Shown: positions 22,465 to 34,446, counted from the first letter of the stretch. The stretch: DNA of 64,000 nt from Pyrinomonadaceae bacterium (GCA_022843305.1 JALHNX010000003.1:4272-68271); one strand, 5' to 3'. The notes: generated by a model not told the origin, from the letters alone. A program made the numbers and translations.

Positions 22465-23685
22465 TTAGCTCGCCGCTTTCGCGTCCGTCTTGTAAGCCGG
22501 AAGACTGACCCGCGCTTTCGGTTCTTTCTTCAAGCCCAAAGCCCAATCCGCTTGCATCAGCGTGTGTATGTCGCGCGTTCCTTCATAAATGACGGCGGCT
22601 TTGCAGTTTCGCAAATAACGCTCGACCGGATAATCGTTCGTGTAACCGTTTGCGCCGTGAATTTCAATCGCCATCGAAGCGGCTGTTTCACTGCGAACGG
22701 TCGCTTGCCATTTTGCCAAACTCGCGGCTTTTGCCGAAGATGCGCCGATATTTTTCAGATAACCGCATTTCAGCCAGAGCAGATGCGACATTTCATAATC
22801 GGCTTCCATATTAGCAATTTTTTGCTTGACGAGTTGGAAATTGGCGATTTTTTGCCCTTGCACTTCGCGTGTGTTTGCATATGAAACAGAAGCATCCCGC
22901 GAAGCGCGAATCACACCGGTTGCGCCTGCCGCGACCGTGTAGCGTCCGTTTTCAAGCGAAAACATCGCAATTTTGAAGCCTTCGCCTTCGTTCCCAAGCA
23001 TATTTTCGTTGGATACGCGCACGTCTTGAAGCGAAAAATAACCCGTATTTCCGGCTTTAATTCCCAATTTTCCGTGCAGCGTCCCGGAAGAAAAACCTTC
23101 CATCGTGCGCTCGACAATAAAACAACTGATGCCCGAATGGTCGCGCACTTTTTGTTTTTCCAAATCCGTCCAACAGAAAAACAGGAAATGATCGGCAACG
23201 TCGCCTAAAGAAATCCACATCTTTTCGCCGTTCAAAATCCATCCCGCGCCGTCGCGTTTGGCATACGAACGCATCCCGACGACATCGCTTCCCGCGTTCG
23301 GTTCGGTCAATCCGAACGTCGCCAATTTTTCGCCCTTCGCCTGCGGCACGAGATATTTTTGCTTTTGTTCTTCTGTTCCCCAAGTCAATAAAGACAAAGA
23401 GTTCAGCCCAACGTGAACGCTCATTGCGACGCGCAAAAACGTATCACACGCTTCGAGTTCTTCGCAGACAAGCCCAAGCGAAATATAATCAAACCCCGCG
23501 CCGCCGTATTCTTCGGGAATACAAACACCAAGAAGCCCAAGCTCCGCCATTTTGTCAAAAATGCTCCGCTCAAAATGCGCCTTCTCATCCCATTCCTTTA
23601 TAAACGGCGCAACTTCCCCATCGCAAAATTCCTTAACGGTTTTCTTTAACGCAATATGTTCTTCCGATAATTCAAAATCAATCAC
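22465..23685 (-). CDS. Acyl-CoA dehydrogenase family protein
   Basis: GTG start. FELSEEHIALKKTVKEF, GLTEPNAGSD, the C-terminal YEGTRDIHTLM-type motif, and typical length. Confidence 0.9.
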   Translation of the reverse strand: MIDFELSEEHIALKKTVKEFCDGEVAPFIKEWDEKAHFERSIFDKMAELGLLGVCIPEEYGGAGFDYISLGLVCEELEACDTFLRVAMSVHVGLNSLSLLTWGTEEQKQKYLVPQAKGEKLATFGLTEPNAGSDVVGMRSYAKRDGAGWILNGEKMWISLGDVADHFLFFCWTDLEKQKVRDHSGISCFIVERTMEGFSSGTLHGKLGIKAGNTGYFSLQDVRVSNENMLGNEGEGFKIAMFSLENGRYTVAAGATGVIRASRDASVSYANTREVQGQKIANFQLVKQKIANMEADYEMSHLLWLKCGYLKNIGASSAKAASLAKWQATVRSETAASMAIEIHGANGYTNDYPVERYLRNCKAAVIYEGTRDIHTLMQADWALGLKKEPKARVSLPAYKTDAKAAS

Positions 23686-23767
23686 AGTTTTATAAATTTC
23701 CTTTTAATTTTAAGAAAGTAAATACCGAAATTATTCTATCATTTTGCCGAAAACCTTAGTCAAACCG

Positions 23768-23810
23768 CAAAACAAAAAAGGTGCAGAAAGTAATTCGCTT
23801 TCCACCTTTG
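23768..23810 (-). terminator. Putative intrinsic terminator after the M23-vWA gene
   Basis: The minus strand reads AAGGTG-(19 nt)-CACCTT, then TTTTTGTTTTG. Confidence 0.55.
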
Positions 23811-23837
23811 AGGTTTATGAAACCGTGAATTGATCAG

Positions 23838-25814
23838 TTATAAATTTTTCGTTTTATAATCATCGAGCCGTTCAATCAATTCTTCGAGATGTCCGATTGG
23901 AATGGTCAGCAAACTGAGAGCGTCGCGGTCGAATGAAGGTGAATTGACGCGGCGGTTTAGAAAATCAAGAGAATCAGCCAAATCTGTTGTGTTTCGTTCG
24001 ATTCTTGGCGAGCGGATTTCTAAAATTGTCATCAAATTTCGATAGAATATTCCTTTTTCCGCAACAAATCCGGCAAACTCTGCCGCTAATTCCGCATTTT
24101 TTAAGCTGGTCAAACGTTTGTAATATTCTTTCAAATACGCCAAATCGCTTCGTAAAACATCAATGTAATAGATAAATTGACTTCGATAATCTACTTCTAA
24201 TGTTGTAACTTTTCGCCCGACCTCACTTGAATCGGGCGCGTTTGCCAACAATTTTAAATATTGCAGATAATTTTCCGTCGCGCATTTCGGGCGTTCCAAC
24301 GCTTCGCAAACCATCGCCAGATTGTAGTATCCAATCGGGTCGGACGGATTGTTTTTGACGTAAATCGTCCAAATCTGCAAGGCGTTTCCAAAATCCCGAT
24401 TGACGATTGCCCGTGTGCCGCTTTCGTTGTTTGAAACTTTCGGCTGATAAACGCGAATTACTTTTTGAAAAGCGCGTCTGAGTTGTTCCGAATCCCGCGC
24501 CGGAAAATATTTTCCGCCCGAACTCGATGCCAAATATTGCAAATCGCGCTCTTCTTGCGAACCGGGTTTAATGTCAAACCCGATGCACAAAAACTTGATT
24601 TTTTGATAGACGATGTTTTGACTTTGGCTATACACGCCGCGAGGTCGAATCTTGTCATTACAAGTGTTCATTCCGTCCGTTAAAACAACAATTCGACCTT
24701 CGCCAAGTTGCGGACGAGCCGCGAGATAATCGGTCATCCGGTCAACCGATAAATTTATCGCCGTAAAAAGCGGCGTTGCGCCCGCCGGCGGCGTAATTCC
24801 GCGCAGAAATATATTTTCGGCTTGGCTCAAATTATTAGTAAAAGGCAATAATTGTTTGACATCCCGCGGAGTGCATTCGCCGCCGAAAGTCCAAATCGAA
24901 ACAGTCGAATTATCCTGTTTCCGCCGCCGATTTTCCTGCATCTCGCGCACTGCCTCCAATCCCGCATTTTTCGCCTGCAAAATCTTTCCGTTTTCTTCCA
25001 TACTTCCCGAAACGTCAAGCAAAAACATCGTCGGAAGTTCGGCAGCCGTTACGGGCGGCACGATTGTTCCGCCTTTAATGCGGACATTTGAGAGAAAACT
25101 TATCGGATCAATAACCGGGTTTTTTAAAACATTTTTCAGTCTTCCGTCCGGTTCATAACCATTGAGTTCGGAGTTTGAACAAACTGACCAAATCTCAAAA
25201 TGAAGATGCGGAACGTAAGTATATTTTTTGTTTTGCTTATCGTAAAGTTCGGCAATTTTTCCGCCTGCGTCAATATTATCGCCTGTTTTAACGAGAATTT
25301 TACTTTCATCTAAATGCAGATAGTAAGAAAAAATTTCTTCGGTTTCAAATTCTTCGTAGCTTCCGGCTTTGCCGTTGTATCTGAAAGCGATAAATTTACT
25401 TCCGCGTGGTGCAAGGTGTTTGATAATCACTAATCCGCCGCGAGTCGGAAGAGGATTCGGATTCGATTTTGTTGAAAAGATTACAATCCCGTTTCCAATC
25501 GAATAAATCGGCTGATTTTGGCTTGCTGAACTGCTTCCGCCAAGCAAATAATCAACTCCCGTATGTTGCCAAAATCCGCCCGGCAGCCCCGGAATGTCTT
25601 TATTTGTTACACGGTTTCCAAAATCATTTGTGATTTGCCAAGAATTTCCGCCCGTATCCAGTACTGGCATTTTAAAAAAATCTGCCCTTTTTGAAGGTTC
25701 AAGTCCGCATTGGACTCCGCTTAGTTTTGTTTGTGCCTGCGTAATAAAAACAAAAAAACACAGTAAAAACGGGGCAAGACGGAAAATCCTAAAGTTTTGC
25801 TGTAAAATTCTCAT
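23838..25814 (-). CDS. Secreted M23 (LytM-type) peptidase fused to a vWA domain and a C-terminal helical-repeat region
   Basis: M23 motifs HTGVDY (HxxxD) and PHLHFEI (HxH). vWA MIDAS motif LLDVSGSMEENG. The C-terminus is TPR-like (ALQIWTIYVKNNPSDPIGYYNLAMVCEAL). Confidence 0.85.
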   Translation of the reverse strand: MRILQQNFRIFRLAPFLLCFFVFITQAQTKLSGVQCGLEPSKRADFFKMPVLDTGGNSWQITNDFGNRVTNKDIPGLPGGFWQHTGVDYLLGGSSSASQNQPIYSIGNGIVIFSTKSNPNPLPTRGGLVIIKHLAPRGSKFIAFRYNGKAGSYEEFETEEIFSYYLHLDESKILVKTGDNIDAGGKIAELYDKQNKKYTYVPHLHFEIWSVCSNSELNGYEPDGRLKNVLKNPVIDPISFLSNVRIKGGTIVPPVTAAELPTMFLLDVSGSMEENGKILQAKNAGLEAVREMQENRRRKQDNSTVSIWTFGGECTPRDVKQLLPFTNNLSQAENIFLRGITPPAGATPLFTAINLSVDRMTDYLAARPQLGEGRIVVLTDGMNTCNDKIRPRGVYSQSQNIVYQKIKFLCIGFDIKPGSQEERDLQYLASSSGGKYFPARDSEQLRRAFQKVIRVYQPKVSNNESGTRAIVNRDFGNALQIWTIYVKNNPSDPIGYYNLAMVCEALERPKCATENYLQYLKLLANAPDSSEVGRKVTTLEVDYRSQFIYYIDVLRSDLAYLKEYYKRLTSLKNAELAAEFAGFVAEKGIFYRNLMTILEIRSPRIERNTTDLADSLDFLNRRVNSPSFDRDALSLLTIPIGHLEELIERLDDYKTKNL

Positions 25815-25826
25815 TATTCAATAGGC

Positions 25827-26120
25827 TTAATAACAACTGATAAATTCACGGAAAACCCAACCGAGAATCACATAATTTCTGCCGCGATAAACACCGATTC
25901 GCACCCATTCGCGCCCGCGGTTATCCGACGAATATTTTTCGATATAAACCACCGTTCCATTGCGGATTTTTCCGACAATTCGACCATTCGGCGAAGCCCG
26001 AATATTTAACGGCGTTCCCGTCGGATCAGTTACTTTACATCTCTGTGCGCTTGCTTCCTGAACACCTACAAAAGCAAATACTCCAACCAAAAATAATATG
26101 CAAAATATTGAACTTTTCAT
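25827..26120 (-). CDS. Small secreted SH3b-domain protein
   Basis: AGGAG followed by ATG, with a signal peptide. CKVTDPTGTPLNIRASPNGRIVGKIRNGTVVYI is a typical bacterial SH3 pattern. Confidence 0.7.
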   Translation of the reverse strand: MKSSIFCILFLVGVFAFVGVQEASAQRCKVTDPTGTPLNIRASPNGRIVGKIRNGTVVYIEKYSSDNRGREWVRIGVYRGRNYVILGWVFREFISCY

Positions 26121-26135
26121 TTTCTTCTCCTATTT

Positions 26136-26858
26136 TTATTTGATCTCCGAAAACTGAACATCTAAAATTCCGGTTTCGGGACAATTTTGAAAATCGTAAT
26201 GCCACCATTCCGCCGCATAAACCTTAAAACCGTCCGACTCCATCGCTTTTCGCAAAATCTCGCGGTTTTTCTTTTGCGCTTCGGTTGCTCTTGCGTAATC
26301 AATCGCGGCTTTGGCTGTAAAATCATCGTATTCGGTCGGCAGATCCAAATTTTCGCCTGTTTTTAAGTCAAAAAGACTCAAATCAACCGCGCAACCGCGA
26401 TTGTGGCGCGAGCCGTTTTTCGGGTTGGCAACGAATTTTTTCTTGCTTGCGGGCGTAACTTCCCAGAAAAGTTTGGTTGCCGAAAGCGGACGATAGCCGT
26501 CAAAAATTACCAAGCCAAGATTGTCTTTTTTCAATTTTTGGTGAATCCTGACAACCGCATCTGCCGCCGGACGCTGTAAAAAAGCCCGCGCTTCTTTGTA
26601 AACTGCTTTACCGACAAAATTGTTTGCCGTCGCATAGCGAATGTCGAGTTTTAGCGTGTCGTCCAACTTTATCAACTCGACCAAGCCGTCTTTGGAAACT
26701 TCTTTTTTCGCCGTTGCCGACGGAGTCGGGCTTGGCGTTAAATTTGTTTCGGCAATTTTAGGCTTCGGCGTTTCAATTTCAGTTTTCGCCGTTGTCGCCG
26801 CCGGATTTTGACAAGCTAAGCTGACCGCAAAAATTAAAAATATAAATACGATTTTCAT
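26136..26858 (-). CDS. Exported D-alanyl-D-alanine dipeptidase (M15D, VanX/DdpX-like)
   Basis: FDGYRP, SRHNRGCAVDLSL (SxHxxGxAxD) and AEWWHYD. Signal or lipobox-like N-terminus IFAVSLAC. Confidence 0.85.
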   Translation of the reverse strand: MKIVFIFLIFAVSLACQNPAATTAKTEIETPKPKIAETNLTPSPTPSATAKKEVSKDGLVELIKLDDTLKLDIRYATANNFVGKAVYKEARAFLQRPAADAVVRIHQKLKKDNLGLVIFDGYRPLSATKLFWEVTPASKKKFVANPKNGSRHNRGCAVDLSLFDLKTGENLDLPTEYDDFTAKAAIDYARATEAQKKNREILRKAMESDGFKVYAAEWWHYDFQNCPETGILDVQFSEIK

Positions 26859-26878
26859 ATTTCCGATAATATTCCGAG

Positions 26879-27442
26879 CTAATCGCTCGAAGTCGCGGCA
26901 TCAACTCCAAAACAAAATCCGTCTTGTGTGCCTTTTCCGCTCAAACAATATTCGCCCGGCGACAGAGTGTTTGCCGGAACGACTTTGAACGAAGATTCGC
27001 CGTATTTGGCGACATTAAATTGAATAGCGTATTGATTGACGGTAGTTTTTGAGCTGATTCCAATTGAACCGACTTTGGCAACCGTTAGTTGACGATAGCC
27101 TTTTTTGGAATCAAACCGAAAAAATTCGATAACGCTCATCGGGTCAATCGCTTGCGAAGCTACGCGCACAACAAACGCTAATTTTTGGTCGGCTTTGAAT
27201 CTGACGTTTGATTTTTCACCTTTAATCCTCAAAAGACTTTCGCCGCCGCCATAACCCAAGGCTTTAATTTTAACTTTTGATTCCGGCGTTTGCCGTTCAA
27301 GCGCAACTAAGTTTCCGTTTTCTTCCAAATTAAAGTAAACGCCGATGTATTCGGGTTCGGTTACGGTTTTCTTTTCTTGCGCCAAGACCGTTTGGCAAAG
27401 CAAAATTACCAAAACAAAAAATGATAGTTTCATAATTTTCAT
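26879..27442 (-). CDS. Secreted hypothetical protein
   Basis: Signal peptide MKLSFFVLVILLCQTVLAQ. It is packed 13-20 nt from both neighbours. No family recognised. Confidence 0.6.
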   Translation of the reverse strand: MKIMKLSFFVLVILLCQTVLAQEKKTVTEPEYIGVYFNLEENGNLVALERQTPESKVKIKALGYGGGESLLRIKGEKSNVRFKADQKLAFVVRVASQAIDPMSVIEFFRFDSKKGYRQLTVAKVGSIGISSKTTVNQYAIQFNVAKYGESSFKVVPANTLSPGEYCLSGKGTQDGFCFGVDAATSSD

Positions 27443-27455
27443 ATTTTTTTCTCCA

Positions 27456-29288
27456 TTACGAACATTGAATTTTAAGAGTTTGCCGCACAGATTGCGGAAC
27501 GGATTTTAGTTCATCGCATTGATAATCGCCGCCTTCGTCCATTCCGACTGATGTCCAAGTATTGCCGTTTTGTTTGAGAAGCCAAGTTCCGCCTTGTCCG
27601 GTAGTCTGCATTTTACTATTCATCGTATTCACACCGATTTCGGCGTAATCGTCGGCAAAACTCTTTATTTGCGACTTTGTTTTTTTAATAATTCGCCCCG
27701 TTTTTATCGCCGCCACATAATTAAAACCTTCCAGCGCAATCCAAACATATACATCTTGCGAACTCGCGCCCTGTTTGGTTTCTTTGACGACAAAAGCAAT
27801 GAGCGATGAGATTTTCTTTTGAAGCGCGGCGGCTTCGGCTCTTTTGATTTGCGCCGGTGTTTGCGGTTTGATTTTTGTGGTTTTCGGCGTAGTTTTGGCA
27901 ACATTCGGTTTTGGCTTCGGTTGAATCCAGCCGAAATATACGCCCACGCCTTCGACAAATTTTTCACGCCCGACGGTATGTTCGCTGAAATCGGCGTTTG
28001 AATAATTTAAAATCATTTCGCGCCGCGTGTCTTTCAGACGTTCCAACAACGAATTATTGTCAACATAAAGCACAACGCCGGTTGAAACTTCGCGGTAAAT
28101 CCCCATCATCCGCCGCCAGACGTTTGCGCCTTCGCGGACATCGTAACCGGCATCGTAAGCGTAATAAAGTCCAACGCGGTCGGCTTGTTCTTCCATATCT
28201 TTGGAAAATTTGCCGGACATCAGTTTATAAGACAGTTGCGCCATTAAAAGTCCCGTATTTTGTCCCAAAACGGACGCACCGATACCAATGAGTGCCGCCC
28301 AACGCGCTTGATCTTGTTGGGCTTCAAAACGTCGGCGGGCGTGTTCATTGGTAACGTGCGCGATTTCGTGTCCGAGAACGAAGGCTAGTTCCGCTTCGCT
28401 TTGCAGACGTTTTAAAAGTCCCGTATGAATAAAAACCGAACCGTCCGAAAATGCTACGGCATTCGGCACATCGTCTTCGAGAACATAAAAACGGAATAAA
28501 ACCCTATTCGGATCTTCTTCGGGCAACATTTTCAAATATTTCGGCACAATCCGCATTCCGATTTTTGTAACGTAAGTGTTAAGTTCCAAATCATCAACTA
28601 CTTTGAAAGTGCGTCCGTTGATTATCACGCCCGCGCCGGTTGTTCCGGGCGGCGGCAAGGTCAAACCTTTTTTGACGGTTTCCAATAATTTTGTTTCAAG
28701 CGGCGTAAAAAGATTCGGGCGAACTTCGCCGGACGTAACTCTAACTACCCGATTTGTCTGCCGAATGCCTTTCAAATCGAGAAGCGAACCGAGCGGAATA
28801 TCTTTGAATGTGTTAAAGGTTTTGCCTTTCCATTCTTTAACTCCGGTCAAAATCGCATTCGGCGCAAGCTCGACTACTCTGCCGTTGACTAACGCCCGCG
28901 GAACTTCAACGCGGTCGAGATAACCGTCAATATTCTCTTTCTGTTCTTCAGGATTCGTTTTTACATTGATTTGAACAGCTTTTAATTGGGTCGTTTCGAT
29001 TTTATCGAGTTCGATTTCAACTTCTATTCCGGCACGAATGTAATCCGCCGTAATCGCTTTGCCTTTGTGATTTTTGAGTTTGGTCTGCCCGCTAATCACA
29101 ATTTCCGCAAAATCCCGATTCGGCAAATTTTTCTCGTCCGTCTGAATAATAAGCCGATTAAATGGCGCGGCAAACTCCAAAACAAAACCGTCCTCAATTT
29201 TTGAAGGCAACTTTTTCTGCGCCGAAACTGATAAATTGACGGCTGCAAACATAAATAGCAGCAATGAAGTTAAATGTTTTTTATTCAT
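27456..29288 (-). CDS. Secreted M48-family zinc metallopeptidase (second paralog)
   Basis: Signal LLLFMFAAVNLSVSAQ. LGHEIAHVTNEH (HExxH) and EEQADRVGLYYAYDAG. N- and C-terminal extra domains of unknown type. Confidence 0.85.
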   Translation of the reverse strand: MNKKHLTSLLLFMFAAVNLSVSAQKKLPSKIEDGFVLEFAAPFNRLIIQTDEKNLPNRDFAEIVISGQTKLKNHKGKAITADYIRAGIEVEIELDKIETTQLKAVQINVKTNPEEQKENIDGYLDRVEVPRALVNGRVVELAPNAILTGVKEWKGKTFNTFKDIPLGSLLDLKGIRQTNRVVRVTSGEVRPNLFTPLETKLLETVKKGLTLPPPGTTGAGVIINGRTFKVVDDLELNTYVTKIGMRIVPKYLKMLPEEDPNRVLFRFYVLEDDVPNAVAFSDGSVFIHTGLLKRLQSEAELAFVLGHEIAHVTNEHARRRFEAQQDQARWAALIGIGASVLGQNTGLLMAQLSYKLMSGKFSKDMEEQADRVGLYYAYDAGYDVREGANVWRRMMGIYREVSTGVVLYVDNNSLLERLKDTRREMILNYSNADFSEHTVGREKFVEGVGVYFGWIQPKPKPNVAKTTPKTTKIKPQTPAQIKRAEAAALQKKISSLIAFVVKETKQGASSQDVYVWIALEGFNYVAAIKTGRIIKKTKSQIKSFADDYAEIGVNTMNSKMQTTGQGGTWLLKQNGNTWTSVGMDEGGDYQCDELKSVPQSVRQTLKIQCS

Positions 29289-29304
29289 ACAGTCCGCAAA
29301 GTAG

Positions 29305-29622
29305 CTATGGTTCCGGAACAGGGTCTAACGTTCCTTTCCTGACACATTTTTTACACGAGTTGATACGGCGATAAGTCAGCACTAACCCGTATCTGATACC
29401 GTGTTTTTGGACGGCTTCAATCGAATATTCGGAGCAAGTCGGGTGATAGCGACATTCAATTTTGCCTTCCAGCATCGGTCGCCCGATATACTGATAAATA
29501 CGCACACCACCAACATAGAACCAACCCGTGATTTGCTTTTCGGGATTACGATAAGTGTCTGCAATTGCCAAAGTTATCAGCAAAAAAAGTACAATTAAAT
29601 ATGTTTCGGGTTTTTTAAGCAT
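29305..29622 (-). CDS. yidD: YidD-family membrane protein insertion efficiency factor-like protein
   Basis: CRYHPTCSEYSIEAVQKHGIRYGLVLTYRRINSC matches the YidD signature. ATG at 29622 overlaps the upstream stop by 8 nt. Confidence 0.8.
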   Translation of the reverse strand: MLKKPETYLIVLFLLITLAIADTYRNPEKQITGWFYVGGVRIYQYIGRPMLEGKIECRYHPTCSEYSIEAVQKHGIRYGLVLTYRRINSCKKCVRKGTLDPVPEP

Positions 29623-30034
29623 TTCCACACGTTGGACATTTAACAATCGATTGAAGCCTTTTATTGTTGCAATGCGGACAATTTATCAAATCACCTTGCG
29701 GGCGGGAATAATAATAAATTGCAAAACCTATCAGCCCGGTAAAGAAAACAAGAAGCATCCACATTACAGAATTATCCAGTCCCCGGGCTTTTGCGTCTTT
29801 AGCAACCCAAACTAAAAGCGCGATGTTAAGCCCGATGACTGCGACAATTGCCACAATCGGCAAAATTATCATCGCCCCTGCCCCTGCGCCGCAAGTTCCG
29901 CAAGCCGCGCAAACCTCGGCATCATTCGGTTGATTCGTTCTGCTTTGAGCAAGCACTGAAACTATTTGCAGCAAAATCATCATTAAAGAAAACGCTGTTT
30001 TTTTTATTTTTTTCACCTTTATTCTTCTCTCCAT
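29615..30034 (-). CDS. Membrane protein with a PLD-nuclease-N-like two-TM module and a C-terminal zinc ribbon
   Basis: Signal/anchor, CAACGTCG, two TM helices flanking WVAKDAKARG, and a C-terminal CPHC...CPTC. Confidence 0.65.
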   Translation of the reverse strand: MERRIKVKKIKKTAFSLMMILLQIVSVLAQSRTNQPNDAEVCAACGTCGAGAGAMIILPIVAIVAVIGLNIALLVWVAKDAKARGLDNSVMWMLLVFFTGLIGFAIYYYSRPQGDLINCPHCNNKRLQSIVKCPTCGNA

Positions 30035-30142
30035 TTTTCAGCTAATTTATAAATACTTTGATTATTATTGTGAGGATGTGAGGTAACAAATGCCTGTGAA
30101 ATAATCCAAGTGCGATTATTTTTGCTATCTGCCGGTTTGTCA

Positions 30143-30415
30143 TTACTTTTGAACCGATTTTCTCAAATCTTGCCAATAACTTCGCTCTCCGATCAAATAA
30201 CTCCAGCCCTCGTTTTTTGAAACAGCCCCGTCCAAAGCCCATTCAAAACTCGAAGACATCATATTTTTCACGGCAGTTTTGTAGTTATTCAAAACATTTT
30301 GCTTTAACTTTGCGAAAAATGTCTGAAAACTTTGGTCTTGAGCATTGGCTAGCAGACTGCCGGCAATGTTCAGCAGAATTACCGTTAATATTGAAATGAT
30401 TTTTATTCGGTTCAT
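30143..30415 (-). CDS. Small secreted hypothetical protein
   Basis: ATG at 30415 gives the signal MNRIKIISILTVILLNIAGSLLANAQ. The longer track start was not used. Confidence 0.55.
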   Translation of the reverse strand: MNRIKIISILTVILLNIAGSLLANAQDQSFQTFFAKLKQNVLNNYKTAVKNMMSSSFEWALDGAVSKNEGWSYLIGERSYWQDLRKSVQK

Positions 30416-30492
30416 TTTTCTCCTTTTGAAGAGTTCGACAAAGTTCTGGAAACAGTTATCGAACTCTTCAAATTTGTGCCGGACAAACCGGC

Positions 30493-30879
30493 TTACCATT
30501 CCTCGTAATGCCAATCACCATTTCCCTTTTGACTCGGTTCGCCGCCCTGATAAATTCTTTCGATTCTTGCGTCAGAAGTCGTGGTTACGGTCAACGGAAT
30601 AGAATCGTTTTTCTTATGGTCAAGCCGAATAACAAAACCTTTTTTTGGAGTTCTGCCGCCGCCCGAATGAAATGTTCCGCTTTTTTGCCATCCGCCCCAT
30701 TTGATATTGACTTTGACATTCTTCGGAACAATTCCGGATGTTTGCCCAAATCGCACAATCACATAAATCTTTCCCTTCTCCGCCGGCGGTGTCCAAGTTT
30801 GCGTATCTGCCCGCACGGTTGTCGGAATCGCCAGCAAACAAAACAATATCCCGAATATCGCAATTAGTTTTCTTTTCAT
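30493..30879 (-). CDS. Small secreted hypothetical protein
   Basis: AGGAG followed by ATG. Signal MKRKLIAIFGILFCLLAIPTTVRA. Confidence 0.6.
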   Translation of the reverse strand: MKRKLIAIFGILFCLLAIPTTVRADTQTWTPPAEKGKIYVIVRFGQTSGIVPKNVKVNIKWGGWQKSGTFHSGGGRTPKKGFVIRLDHKKNDSIPLTVTTTSDARIERIYQGGEPSQKGNGDWHYEEW

Positions 30880-30920
30880 TTTTTCTCCTGATTTTGTTAC
30901 TTTCGCTAATCTTCTTCACT

Positions 30921-31097
30921 TCAACTCGATTTTTCGTATTGTAAATACGATTGTTTCCCAGAACCTTTACAAACCGTGCAGTTGCCCGAACCGCGACATT
31001 TTGAGCAGTTAGTTTTGCCGAGTAATCCGTAAGTTCCGCCTTTTCCGCCGCATTGCGCACAATTTCCCGTGCCTTTGCACCCTTTACATTCAGCCAT
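30921..31097 (-). CDS. 58-aa protein consisting of four DnaJ-type CxxCxGxG zinc-finger repeats (absent from the ORF track)
   Basis: My own translation is MAECKGCKGTGNCAQCGGKGGTYGLLGKTNCSKCRGSGNCTVCKGSGKQSYLQYEKSS*. GAGAGGA lies 5-11 nt upstream of ATG at 31097. The stop is 41 nt before the next gene. Confidence 0.65.
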   Translation of the reverse strand: MAECKGCKGTGNCAQCGGKGGTYGLLGKTNCSKCRGSGNCTVCKGSGKQSYLQYEKSS

Positions 31098-31540
31098 CTT
31101 AATCCTCTCTTTTCGTTTGTTTTCGATAAATGTTGTTTTATCCTGTTCATGCTCTCAATATCCACTCAATTTTTTTATTTTCGCTCAAAATTCTTTGAGA
31201 ACAGTTTTTTAACCGCTTTCGAGCGAAAAATCCTTGATTTTGGTTTGCGCCGGTGTTATGATTTGCGCTGTAAAATATAAAAACCGAGTTCCTTTGGGAT
31301 AAAACCTTTTTCCGTAATTCTGCCCGACGGATTTATTTTGTTTGTATTCGGACAGCGGTGAATTTTTGAATGTTTTATAAACCGCTTTAACTACAAAAAT
31401 TGAATTTTGTTTTGCACTATCTACCGTATCTCCAAATGACATTTTGACAATGAATTTATCTTGAAATTTTCGTGAAATAATCGTGAACCGGCTTTTCATT
31501 TTTACGATTTGCGCTGATTTGCGAAATTCAGGAAAGCATT

Positions 31541-32785
31541 ATGAACAAACTCTCAAAAATTTATACATTCGACGATTTTCAGTTTGATACCGACCGTCTC
31601 GCCCTTTATCACCGCACTAATCTGGTCAAAAACAGCGATAAAAAAACGATGCAGGTGTTGGCGGTTTTATTGCTTAATCCGAACAGATTAACGACGCACG
31701 AAGAGATTATCGAAAAGGTTTGGCAGGATAATCCGCTCGGTGTAACTTCCGGGCATATCGGGCAATACATCAGCCGGCTGCGAAAGATTTTTGCCGAACT
31801 CGCGCCTGAAAAACAATTTATCGAAACGGTCAAAGGACGCGGTTATTCATTTAAGGGCAATATATTTTTAGATGACGCGCAAATTGAAGAGAGTGTTGAA
31901 ACCGCGTTGCCGACTGACGCGGCAAATATTCCCGAATCCGTCCAAATTAGCGGAGAAAAATCCGCTTTGCGTTTCAACCTTCGTCAAGCGACAATCGCTT
32001 TTTCGCTTTTGATCTTGGCTTTACTGACGATTTTCGCGGCTTGGACGCGGTTTGCCAAAAATGATGAAGAAGAAATACGGCGCGTGGTTAAAGAGTCGCA
32101 ATTATACGAGTCGTTGGTGTTATACAAAAATCCGGCAATGTTCGATGAAACGCAGCTGGATAAATATTGGATGGCGGAACTCGACCATACTCTGAACGCC
32201 GACCGCCGCCGCATCCGCGAAGCCGTCAAAAAACTCGACAACGAAGGCAGGCGATACGGCGATGAAACACGATGCGAACAGTTCGAGTTTCAATCTGTCG
32301 AAATCAATCAAAACCGCGATTTTGCCGTTGTCAAAACTCTGGAAAAATGGTTTATTGCCGTCTATTTCAACGATGGAACTCTGCAAAGAAATAAATATGT
32401 CGGTCCTTATTTTGTCAGTTATCTCGTCCGCAAATCGAACGGACGCTGGTTGATTGAAAAATCGAATACGGCGCGGGTTAATCGTCCGATACCGCGGCTG
32501 TCCGGCATCGAAACTCTTTCCGAAATCAAGCCGGAACAGCAGTTTTTCGTTAAACTGAACGGACAGGATTTTGAAGCGGAAACCGTTCACATCGAGATTT
32601 TCGGCGAAGGCTGCCCGGAAAGCAACCCGTGCCGAATTTCAAATATAACCTTGCGGGAAAATTCAAAAATCTCGGAAACATTTTTAGAGAATGTTCCGCT
32701 CACGTTGTCGTCCGGCATTTTCAGAATTACCGTTCGCAACGGCGATTCGCGGGGATCGAATTCGGTTGATCTGGAAGTTCCGTAA
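31541..32785 (+). CDS. CadC/ToxR-like membrane-bound transcriptional regulator (N-terminal OmpR-type winged helix)
   Basis: FDDFQFDTDRLALY...MQVLAVLLLNPNRLTTHEEIIEKVW...YISRLRKIF...ETVKGRGYSF, then the TM helix IAFSLLILALLTIFAAW and an extracytoplasmic domain. Confidence 0.8.
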   Translation: MNKLSKIYTFDDFQFDTDRLALYHRTNLVKNSDKKTMQVLAVLLLNPNRLTTHEEIIEKVWQDNPLGVTSGHIGQYISRLRKIFAELAPEKQFIETVKGRGYSFKGNIFLDDAQIEESVETALPTDAANIPESVQISGEKSALRFNLRQATIAFSLLILALLTIFAAWTRFAKNDEEEIRRVVKESQLYESLVLYKNPAMFDETQLDKYWMAELDHTLNADRRRIREAVKKLDNEGRRYGDETRCEQFEFQSVEINQNRDFAVVKTLEKWFIAVYFNDGTLQRNKYVGPYFVSYLVRKSNGRWLIEKSNTARVNRPIPRLSGIETLSEIKPEQQFFVKLNGQDFEAETVHIEIFGEGCPESNPCRISNITLRENSKISETFLENVPLTLSSGIFRITVRNGDSRGSNSVDLEVP

Positions 32786-32807
32786 ATAGATTTGTGATTT
32801 TTGCTGT

Positions 32808-33056
32808 ATGACAAATGAATTTATCATTTACGAATTTGCCGGTTTGCGCTTTTCTGCATTCGATTCGATTTTGGAAAATACGGCGACGGGAAAAAGAATC
32901 AAACTGTCGCAAACGCATTGTCATTTTCTGCTTGCGGTCGTGCGAAAATCTCCCGAAATTGTCGCGTATAACGATTTGCGTCAAAAAGTTTGGGTGCATT
33001 ACAGAGAAATGTCAGAATCGCTCAAACAGCGGATTTTTCTTCCGCTTTTCTGTTAA
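32808..33056 (+). pseudogene. Truncated winged-helix (CadC-like) fragment
   Basis: 82-aa ORF with [55 protein letters not shown]. It lacks the wing (xGxGY), TM and sensor parts, and lies 22 nt after the full-length paralog. Confidence 0.4.
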
Positions 33057-33093
33057 AATAAAAATATTTCAACTCGTCTTGTCGCCAAAATTT

Positions 33094-34446
33094 ATGAAAA
33101 ATCTATTCCGTTTGACGTTTCTTTTCAGCACGTTGTTAATGTCTTTAAGTTTTGCTTTTGCCCAAAATAAATCTAACGAACCGCTTCCGAAAATGCCGAA
33201 ACTTCTTTCACAGCGCGAGCAGGCGGAGGTGCGCGAGATGTGGCTCGGAAAACGGCTCGACACGCTGCTTTTGCCGATGATGCGAAAGCATAATGTTTCG
33301 ATGTGGATTGTTGTCAACGAAGAATTTAACAGCGATCCGGCGACGGAATATCTGGTGCCTCCGATGCCGATTGTCGGAAGCCGCGATTTTTTTATTTTTG
33401 TTGACACAGGCGAAAAAAAATTGGAAAAGATTGCGATTGTCCGTTATGCCGAAGAACGCCTGAAAAATCATTACGAGATGATAAGCGTTTCGCGTGATAA
33501 ATTGGGCGAAACTCTGCGCTCGACAATTGAGAAATACAATCCGAAAACAATTGCTTTGAACATCGGCGGAACGCGCGGACAGCAAAACGGTCTTTCACAC
33601 GCTTCGTATAAAATGCTGGCGGAAACTTTGGGTGCGGATGCGGAGAAAAAATTCGTTTCGGCGGCAAATTTTCTGACCGAATTTTTCGATACACGCATTG
33701 CGGAAGAACTCGAACATTACCGCACGGCGGTTCTGGTAACGGATATTTTGACGCGCCGTGCATTTTCAAACGAAGTTATTATACCGGGAAAAACAACTGT
33801 CGGCGATGTTCGTTGGTGGTTGATTCAGCAAGTCAATAATTTAGGTTTGACGATTTGGTTTCAGCCCGATTTGCGCGTTCAAAGACAAGCAAAATCAACC
33901 GCTGTGAATCAGCAATTTTTGTCGGTTGCCGATGAATCAACGGTTTTGGAACGCGGCGATTTGATTCACGTTGATTTCGGTTTGAACTATATGGGACTTT
34001 CAACCGATTGGCAGAAACACGCTTATATTCTGAAAAAAGGCGAGCGCGATGCGCCGCAAGGTTTGAAAAACGCGCTAAAAAATACGAATCGTTTGCAAGA
34101 CGTTCTCTTCGGCATTGCGCGTGTCGGAATGACCGGCGCAGAAGTTTACGACGCGACGATGGCGCAGATGAAAAAGGAAAATATCGAAGCGATGATTTAT
34201 TCGCATCCGATCGGCACACACGGACACGGACTCGGTGCTTCGATTGATTTCCGCCGCGCCATCGGCGTTTCGCCCGATAGAATCCGGCTCGATTCATATA
34301 TGTCAATTGAATTGAATACTTCGACTGTTATTCCCGAATGGAACAATCAAAAAGTAACGATTATGGCTGAAGACGATGCGTTTATGACCGAAAAAGGCTA
34401 CGAATTTTTCCGCCCGCGCCAGACCGAATTTTATTTGATCAGGTAA
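33094..34446 (+). CDS. Secreted M24-family metallopeptidase (Xaa-Pro peptidase-like)
   Basis: ATG at 33094 gives the signal [24 protein letters not shown]. Pita-bread motifs [20 protein letters not shown] and MAEDDAF. Confidence 0.85.

Follow-up and report, generated by a model that had tools for sequence, protein, structure and literature searches.

Does a 58-codon reading frame that is masked by a longer one encode a protein, and what might a protein with four CxxCxGxG zinc knuckles and neither J nor C-terminal domains do by itself? Both questions are raised by a locus in a 64,000-nucleotide stretch of Pyrinomonadaceae DNA (hereafter the window), where a free-standing DnaJ-type zinc-finger gene had been predicted at the head of a run of genes for secreted proteins.

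The 58-codon frame as a gene

On the minus strand, the frame runs from an ATG at 31097-31095 to a TGA at 30923-30921, and its conceptual product is MAECKGCKGTGNCAQCGGKGGTYGLLGKTNCSKCRGSGNCTVCKGSGKQSYLQYEKSS. This is exactly the translation given in the original prediction, with CxxCxGxG motifs starting at C4, C13, C31 and C40 (Cys pairs 4/7, 13/16, 31/34 and 40/43). The ribosome-binding site and the next gene, which encodes a secreted protein and starts 41 nt downstream of the stop behind an AGGAG of its own, were also found where they had been described (Table 1). In the six-frame translation of the whole 5.72-Mb genome the CxxCxGxG motif occurs 52 times, and only four open frames contain four copies: two DnaJ paralogues, the frame studied here (the mini-gene, encoding the mini-protein) and a mini-protein on contig C118. 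The four-motif cluster of the mini-gene is not a product of chance. The overlapping 181-aa frame had been called spurious, and it gave no significant family match and also overlaps the 128-aa gene downstream. When relatives were compared, a check that had been proposed with the original prediction, the mini-gene frame was conserved, while the 181-aa frame was cut by stops at the homologous loci L013 and L015. The longer frame is spurious.

Table 1. Features of the mini-gene locus (positions in the window).
Feature	Position	Strand	Basis or remark
Mini-protein gene, 58 codons and stop, four CxxCxGxG knuckles	30921..31097	-	Sequence check
Shine-Dalgarno-like GAGAGGA	31103..31109	-	5 nt before the mini-gene ATG
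Window-specific C-terminal extension, YLQYEKSS and stop	30921..30947	-	DNA alignment with L035 and L013
Overlapping 181-aa ORF in another frame, masking the mini-gene	30620..31165	-	ORF scan
128-aa protein, signal-peptide-like N-terminus, no family match	30493..30879	-	Translation
~90-aa secreted-looking protein, MNRIKIISILTV..., no family match	30143..30415	-	Translation
139-aa membrane protein, PLDc_N-like TM region and C-terminal zinc ribbon	29615..30034	-	Domain search
YidD-family paralogue, N-terminal membrane anchor	29305..29646	-	Pfam YidD, E=6e-19
Distal array, tightly packed	23838..29288	-	Gene and domain calls
M48 peptidase	27456..29288	-	Distal array
187-aa secreted protein	26879..27442	-	Distal array
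M15 D-Ala-D-Ala dipeptidase	26136..26858	-	Distal array
SH3_3 protein	25827..26120	-	Distal array
M23 peptidase with vWA domain	23838..25814	-	Distal array
Divergent membrane-anchored winged-helix regulator, Trans_reg_C, CadC/ToxR-like	31541..32785	+	Pfam, E=2.7e-16
Two direct repeats TG(G/A)TTTGCGC(C/T)G, 18 nt apart	31241..31270		140-170 nt upstream of the mini-gene start
~9-kb block holding the whole array and the regulator	23704..33096		Missing at the syntenic site of two congeners

Pattern-based scans reported more than 90 relatives of the mini-gene, with species genomes contributing 19 loci and metagenomes 75. Those in species genomes belong mostly to Pyrinomonadaceae and other Acidobacteriota, with single MAGs of Planctomycetia, Calditrichaceae and Deltaproteobacteria. 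Essentially all family members share the start M-(A/S/G)-E-C-K-G-C, and almost all homologues carry GGAGG or AAGGAG 5-10 nt upstream of the ATG. The closest relatives of the window protein are 88% and 80% identical to it. For L013, one of the two closest loci, we obtained a dN of 0.139 and a dS of 2.06 (dN/dS ~0.07), and of the 39 differences 24 fall on third codon positions. The stretch that the window shares with L035 and L013 at the DNA level is bounded by the SD/ATG at one end and by the stop at the other; in this alignment the TAA stop of the closest relatives reads TAT in the window, which accounts for the final eight residues, YLQYEKSS, of the window protein. A decayed copy from a genome of the same family (L112, G043:C297:122256-122384), in which Cys codons have turned into Tyr, Trp or stop codons and which reads MSAYKGWEGKGKCSRYKGSGRNGIV*G*SRYSGIGNCTAC... 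(asterisks, stop codons), is direct evidence of turnover of the mini-gene. All ten family members that were tested, the window's included, were missing from a collection of 15 billion proteins; the mini-gene is systematically overlooked by gene callers and almost never annotated. Selection, the similarity bounded by SD and stop, the decayed copy and the absence from this collection together show it to be a real gene under purifying selection that has escaped annotation, as had been predicted.

The reverse reading would be that no functional protein is made, and that the frame is a Cys-codon-rich leader or regulatory uORF of the downstream operon, or a chance ORF. The gene callers' silence could be taken in its favor, as could the position of the frame, first in an operon-like array and 41 nt ahead of the next gene. 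That position is not a family trait, however: in 25 of 74 loci, about a third, the gene that comes next runs toward the mini-gene, which is then the last of its unit, and in many others the mini-gene lies behind unrelated genes. Since, furthermore, purifying selection acts on the amino-acid sequence, a conserved fold is confidently predicted, the same module is a domain within larger proteins, and four motifs in one frame are far beyond chance, we regard this reading as close to excluded. An Rfam search over the whole window gave no match, and hence no riboswitch or leader RNA upstream of the mini-gene; a promoter and terminator scan found nothing convincing upstream and no terminator between the mini-gene and the next gene.

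Of 61 related genomes searched with a profile, two, G000 and G054, contained bona fide members, and the 17 congeners searched contained none. The mini-gene is sporadic and accessory and, as it did not turn up in these congeners, does not belong to a core pathway. When 1.84 billion cluster representatives were searched exhaustively with the profile, 202 clusters were returned at E<=0.001, many of them free-standing proteins of 46-70 residues; the ~46-residue double-knuckle unit was also seen in long tandem arrays and as the C-terminal part of proteins that carry a signal peptide. These profile-based searches superseded a word-indexed homologue search, which had retrieved two proteins only, and a single-sequence search, which had retrieved mostly unrelated CxxC proteins. 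A scan of viral contigs yielded no relative of the mini-protein, and NCBIfam, PHROGs and PADLOC yielded no match.

Architecture, predicted fold and kinship

We derived the architecture of the family from 68 distinct members. Their usual length is 46-51 aa with a fixed start and stop, and the window protein has 58 aa, so that the claim of a protein devoid of J and C-terminal domains stands. Exactly eight cysteines are found in 66 of the 68, and the pattern C..C.G.G.C..C.G.G-linker-C..C.G...C..C.G.G fits 65, in which the linker between knuckles 2 and 3 measures 7, 8, 10 or 12 residues; linkers with at least two hydrophobic residues are present in 61 of the 68 members. Glycine makes up ~24% of the residues and cysteine 14-17%. 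Net charge lies between +3 and +11; the median, +7, is also the value of the window protein, whose core comprises ~49 residues. Besides the ligands, positions E3, K5, T10, N39, T41 and V42 are conserved at 80-98%, and conserved lysines occupy positions 5, 12 and 33. No signal or leader peptide was seen, and the conserved fold begins at residue 2.

An AF2 run with the 68-sequence alignment modeled the mini-protein at a pLDDT of 86.6, with values >90 for most of residues 1-50 and the lowest confidence in the C-terminal extension YLQYEKSS (block mean pLDDT 62); it was used instead of an earlier run with 3 sequences, which was uninformative (pLDDT 46.8). Short strands were placed at residues 2-3, 12, 21-23, 28-30, 39 and 48-49, and the paired strand positions satisfy i+j=51, the register of a single antiparallel hairpin. 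According to this model, the mini-protein is probably a single hairpin that two zinc ions hold together. AF2 does not place the metal, and the pairing of the ligands was read from the strand register: knuckles 2 and 3 would form one Zn(Cys)4 site by the loop and knuckles 1 and 4 the other at the termini. The leading Foldseek matches of the model were BSD2 and the DnaJ cysteine-rich domain, with BSD2 first (E=0.055, TM 0.37), while a fold search of BFVD gave no significant match.

The original prediction had taken the four motifs for the complete two-zinc module of DnaJ. The kinship itself was supported, since DnaJ-type cysteine-rich domains are the only kin that could be detected: the family profile matched those of 1EXK (E=3e-5) and 2CTT (E=7e-5) best in the PDB, where a single-sequence search with the mini-protein gave motif-level matches only (E>0.4). 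The completeness was not. Pfam DnaJ_CXXCXGXG (PF00684) scored the window protein at 12.4 bits (E=0.2) against a gathering cutoff of 32.7, and its matches in 17 of 20 members (best E=0.0027) were all below that cutoff. The DnaJ domain (PF00684; E. coli 1EXK, human DNAJA3 2CTT) shares with the mini-protein the four CxxCxGxG knuckles and, with its predicted hairpin, their pairing as 1+4 and 2+3; however, knuckles 1-2 and 3-4 are one residue apart in the mini-protein and separated by long spacers in DnaJ, and the DnaJ domain is embedded between the G/F region and the C-terminal substrate-binding domains of a J-domain protein, whereas the mini-protein is free-standing. Because of the one-residue spacing, we do not consider the mini-protein to be the DnaJ zinc module itself.

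The chloroplast protein BSD2/ZnJ2 (PDB 6EKB, 6EKC) is likewise J-less and essentially a four-knuckle zinc module, in contrast to which the mini-protein family is bacterial, cytoplasmic and shorter, has another knuckle spacing and lies in no Rubisco context. Matches to BSD2_CRD (PF25436) in two of 20 members only (best E=0.13) do not make the family part of it. By sequence, the mini-protein thus appears to be a distant, compact, free-standing relative of the DnaJ/BSD2 cysteine-rich domain. Anti-TRAP (RtpA of Bacillus; 3LCZ/3LD0) resembles it in being bacterial, free-standing, ~53 aa long and built with CxxCxGxG knuckles, but it has two knuckles instead of four, binds one zinc and forms trimers and dodecamers, and the mini-gene loci are without trp or TRAP context. 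Anti-TRAP acts purely by binding another protein. The Anti-TRAP model (PF15777) matched two of 20 members (best E=0.0023) and the profile met 3LCZ at E=0.27, too little for membership. All 20 members matched DUF7895 (PF25433) in its first ~20-30 positions, in each case below the cutoff (best E=9.6e-6); for the window protein the score was 17.1 bits against a cutoff of 27, over model positions 3-21 of 75, about a quarter of the model. Two larger proteins with the double-knuckle module do exceed the DUF7895 cutoff (P0007 with 44.9 bits and P0010 with 32.8 bits). DUF5351 (PF17302) was touched by 13 of 20 members. These two scored highest of all curated families, but they contribute nothing on mechanism. 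Metallothioneins, which have a very high Cys content with CxC/CC clusters and multi-metal thiolate clusters, differ from the mini-protein, whose eight cysteines in 49-58 residues are all spaced as CxxC, with no CC or CxC.

The family comprises proteins of ~49 residues, forms hundreds of clusters in public data and falls below the cutoff of every curated family. It shows that bacteria possess the DnaJ-type zinc knuckle in a minimal, free-standing form with a compact geometry of its own, and the mini-protein offers a simple, tractable object for learning what such knuckles do alone.

In addition, some large proteins (P0022, P0031, P0009 and L103) contain long tandem CxxCxGxG arrays with a 9-residue period. 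The C-terminal region that follows the array in P0031 has an R-x4-H motif and, judged by eye, may be HEPN-like. In P0068 two modules follow an FGE-sulfatase domain. No hint at a function came from the domains to which the module is fused in the larger proteins (FGE-sulfatase, WG repeats, DUF7895).

Gene context in the window and across the family

In the window, the mini-gene does head a run of secreted-protein genes, as had been noted. It is the first of ten co-directional genes for exported or membrane proteins, followed in order by the 128-aa secreted protein, the ~90-aa secreted protein, the TM zinc-ribbon protein, the YidD paralogue, the M48 peptidase, the 187-aa secreted protein, the M15 and SH3 proteins and the M23 peptidase with vWA domain, with gaps of 12-20 nt from the YidD paralogue onward. 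A 123-aa version of the ~90-aa gene, beginning at a TTG, is probably over-extended, a choice of start that we infer. The YidD paralogue is the second copy in this genome, the canonical YidD being encoded on contig C129. Elsewhere, a homologue of the 139-aa protein lies directly downstream of the mini-gene in L065. For the 128-aa gene, whose linkage the original prediction had proposed to check, the sole homologue among 87 loci is in L025 and there upstream of the mini-gene.

Homologues of the divergent CadC/ToxR-like regulator are present in seven of the 87 loci, in six of them divergently upstream of the mini-gene and in four directly adjacent to it. The GCGCAAA-type direct repeats between the two genes may be sites for this regulator, judging from their sequence and position; the motif TG(G/A)TTTGCGC(C/T)G has three exact matches in the window against 0.31 expected. 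A third similar copy adjoins the start of the regulator gene (~31502-31516), and a 19/20-identical copy lies within the M48 peptidase gene (27842-27861). Just past the full-length regulator gene there is a second match to the regulator-family HMM (32808-33056), whose sequence would fit a truncated tandem copy of the DNA-binding domain at the edge of the block described below.

The whole array and the regulator form a ~9-kb block that is an indel polymorphism among congeners, since the genes that flank it adjoin in two of them: in G005 and G001 the orthologues of window 22465-23685 and ~33097-34446, encoding an acyl-CoA dehydrogenase and an M24 peptidase, are only 130-160 nt apart. A synteny search at the DNA level had recovered only the M24 peptidase gene, and the comparison was redone at the protein level. 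The GC content of the block is 0.40-0.45, compared with ~0.50 in the left flank, and no integrase, tRNA or terminal repeats were seen.

Across the family, the neighborhoods of the mini-gene vary widely, even in the closest relatives (88% and 80% identical). Most neighbors have no known function and many are small cytoplasmic proteins. Three contexts recur. In the first (18-19 loci), AraC regulators or a lipoprotein gene precede the mini-gene, which is followed by genes for a lipoprotein, a membrane protein and a Tubulin_2-like protein. In the second, the mini-gene lies <=30 nt downstream of a gene for one of several unrelated, unannotated small cytoplasmic proteins. In the third, seen in 10 of 87 loci and with six or more different arrangements, a YidD-like gene lies within 2.3 kb on the same strand. 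Chance alone would give 0.15 in the 435 kb examined, and the enrichment of YidD-like genes near the mini-gene is clear.

The operon of the first context, which is conserved within one clade, encodes 3′ of the mini-gene a lipoprotein of ~450-510 aa, then a small membrane protein, a Tubulin_2-like protein of ~550 aa (E=2e-5 to PF13809, below its cutoff) and another conserved protein, and two to three AraC-type regulator genes precede it (L020, L021, L029, L037-L039, L042-L044, L046, L047, L050, L051, L056, L057, L060, L061 and L063). As to the third context, the mini-gene is adjoined in L016, L017, L048-L050, L077, L079 and L084 by members of a separate YidD-like subfamily (MKWLL..YR.LP...KR.CLF.ETCS...), which are extended at the C-terminus by ~50 residues ending in ADFV..PY and are unlike both YidD copies of the window genome.

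The original prediction had further envisaged a general functional link to secreted proteins. Immediate downstream neighbors looked exported in 61% of cases against a background of 23% (p=4e-6), an enrichment that we rejected as it was driven by one clade (family F2). When each neighbor family was counted once, signal or anchor-like N-termini were present in 10 of 24 downstream families, compared with 24% in the background (p=0.08). With contexts as variable as these and a convergent downstream gene in about a third of loci, the general link did not hold, and the family-wide connection of the mini-gene to exported proteins is weak.

Among the 127 immediate neighbors, the top 25 of 38 Pfam families listed held no DnaK, GrpE, protease, metal-homeostasis or RiPP genes. 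Readings of the mini-gene as part of a defense system, a toxin-antitoxin pair or a RiPP pathway were dropped, as no neighbor supported them. The RiPP reading, which would make the mini-protein a precursor or a secreted Cys-rich peptide, owes its appeal to the cysimiditides (type II pamtides), whose small precursors fall in a similar size range and form a hairpin anchored by a Zn-tetracysteine of CXXCXGXG motifs, modified by a neighboring methyltransferase (bioRxiv 10.1101/2024.10.02.616296). Their precursors have two motifs, however, compared with four in the mini-protein, and an obligatory PIMT-type methyltransferase neighbor; no such enzyme, radical-SAM protein, peptidase-transporter or other maturation enzyme was among the 25 families listed for the mini-gene. 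The conserved loop Asp of cysimiditides is lacking in the mini-protein family, as is any signal or leader peptide ahead of a fold conserved from residue 2, and cysimiditides have been reported only in Actinomycetota (bioRxiv 10.1101/2024.10.02.616296). This reading, too, is close to excluded.

Possible functions of the mini-protein

We infer zinc binding, the pairing of the ligands, a protein-binding mode of action and a connection to the envelope, and our analysis offers a zinc-stabilized protein-binding adaptor or holdase as the best guess at function. In its full form this proposal is tentative, and we give it somewhat less than an even chance: the mini-protein would be a strongly basic, cytoplasmic, zinc-stapled hairpin that binds proteins, with envelope proteins as the suggested clients. 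One long beta-hairpin would be shut by two Zn(Cys)4 sites, of which that of knuckles 1 and 4 (C4/C7 with C40/C43) would tie the two termini together, and that of knuckles 2 and 3 (C13/C16 with C31/C34) would hold together, at its base, a short variable loop with at least two hydrophobic residues. The tip of this loop and the conserved non-ligand surface (E3, K5, T10, N39, T41, V42) would contact other proteins, which would make the mini-protein an adaptor or a holdase-type factor that serves envelope proteins on the inner side of the membrane. Binding is the most likely mode of action since there is no room for a catalytic site. The envelope clients are suggested by the YidD-like linkage and by the exported-protein array of the window, which the divergent CadC/ToxR-like regulator would control. 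In ZnJ2/BSD2, J-less proteins with four CxxCxGxG motifs, both zinc binding and holding-chaperone activity have been described (PMC5818400).

A narrower version, which strikes us as rather improbable, makes the mini-protein the dedicated cytoplasmic partner of a divergent YidD-like membrane factor, the two forming a so far unrecognized, horizontally mobile two-part helper that inserts or exports particular sets of envelope proteins. Docking of the zinc-stapled hairpin, either to the YidD-like protein or to nascent envelope proteins, would take place at the inner face of the membrane, and the set so helped would be the cell-wall-hydrolase array here and the lipoprotein/Tubulin_2 system elsewhere. 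Through its YidD-like linkage, the mini-gene gives a concrete starting point, open to testing, for work on YidD proteins, which are poorly understood, and on the accessory modules of envelope biogenesis in Acidobacteriota, a phylum that is dominant in soil but has been little studied.

The composition of the mini-protein, with 14-17% Cys and 24% Gly and the strongest conservation at the metal ligands, could instead point to a metal or redox buffer, that is, a metallothionein-like store of Zn (or Cu/Cd) or a zinc-thiolate redox switch giving up its metal upon oxidation, in either case with no specific protein partner. A sporadic, accessory gene in variable contexts is what would be expected of a stress add-on, and in the window three genes for zinc metallopeptidases share the locus with the mini-gene. 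Oxidants are known to target Zn(Cys)4 sites (PMC6021785). We find such a buffer unlikely, however: regular CxxCxGxG knuckles with a confident, defined fold characterize structural sites of high affinity rather than exchangeable stores, and the hydrophobic loop is conserved, as are several residues that are not ligands. The top 25 of the 38 Pfam families listed for the neighbors included no recurrent genes for metal resistance or efflux or of Zur type, and the linked peptidases are exported and would therefore not receive metal in the cytoplasm. Were the mini-protein only a generic zinc mini-protein, the practical value of our findings would be a correction of annotation.

Small zinc-ribbon ribosomal proteins sit on the ribosome, and a median net charge of +7 in 49 residues together with the conserved lysines 5, 12 and 33 raises the thought that the mini-protein might be a zinc knuckle binding RNA or DNA, the ribosome or an anionic membrane. 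A likeness to the zinc finger of antiterminator Q, at motif level only (E ~0.5-3), goes in the same direction. We judge this very improbable, as the mini-protein resembled no family of ribosomal or nucleic-acid-binding proteins in the family searches, the top 25 of 38 Pfam families listed for the neighbors showed no linkage to translation or transcription genes beyond neighboring regulators, and a patchy distribution is at odds with a core ribosomal role.

Two other small CxxCxGxG proteins came up in the course of the analysis. The four-motif protein on contig C118 of G000 (C118:15731-16117) is a second, unrelated free-standing one of ~85 aa with DnaJ-like long spacers, which has homologues in L003 and L006 and is conserved in the congeners G002 and G004. 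Contig C39 (28106-28393) encodes a two-knuckle mini-protein of Anti-TRAP size.
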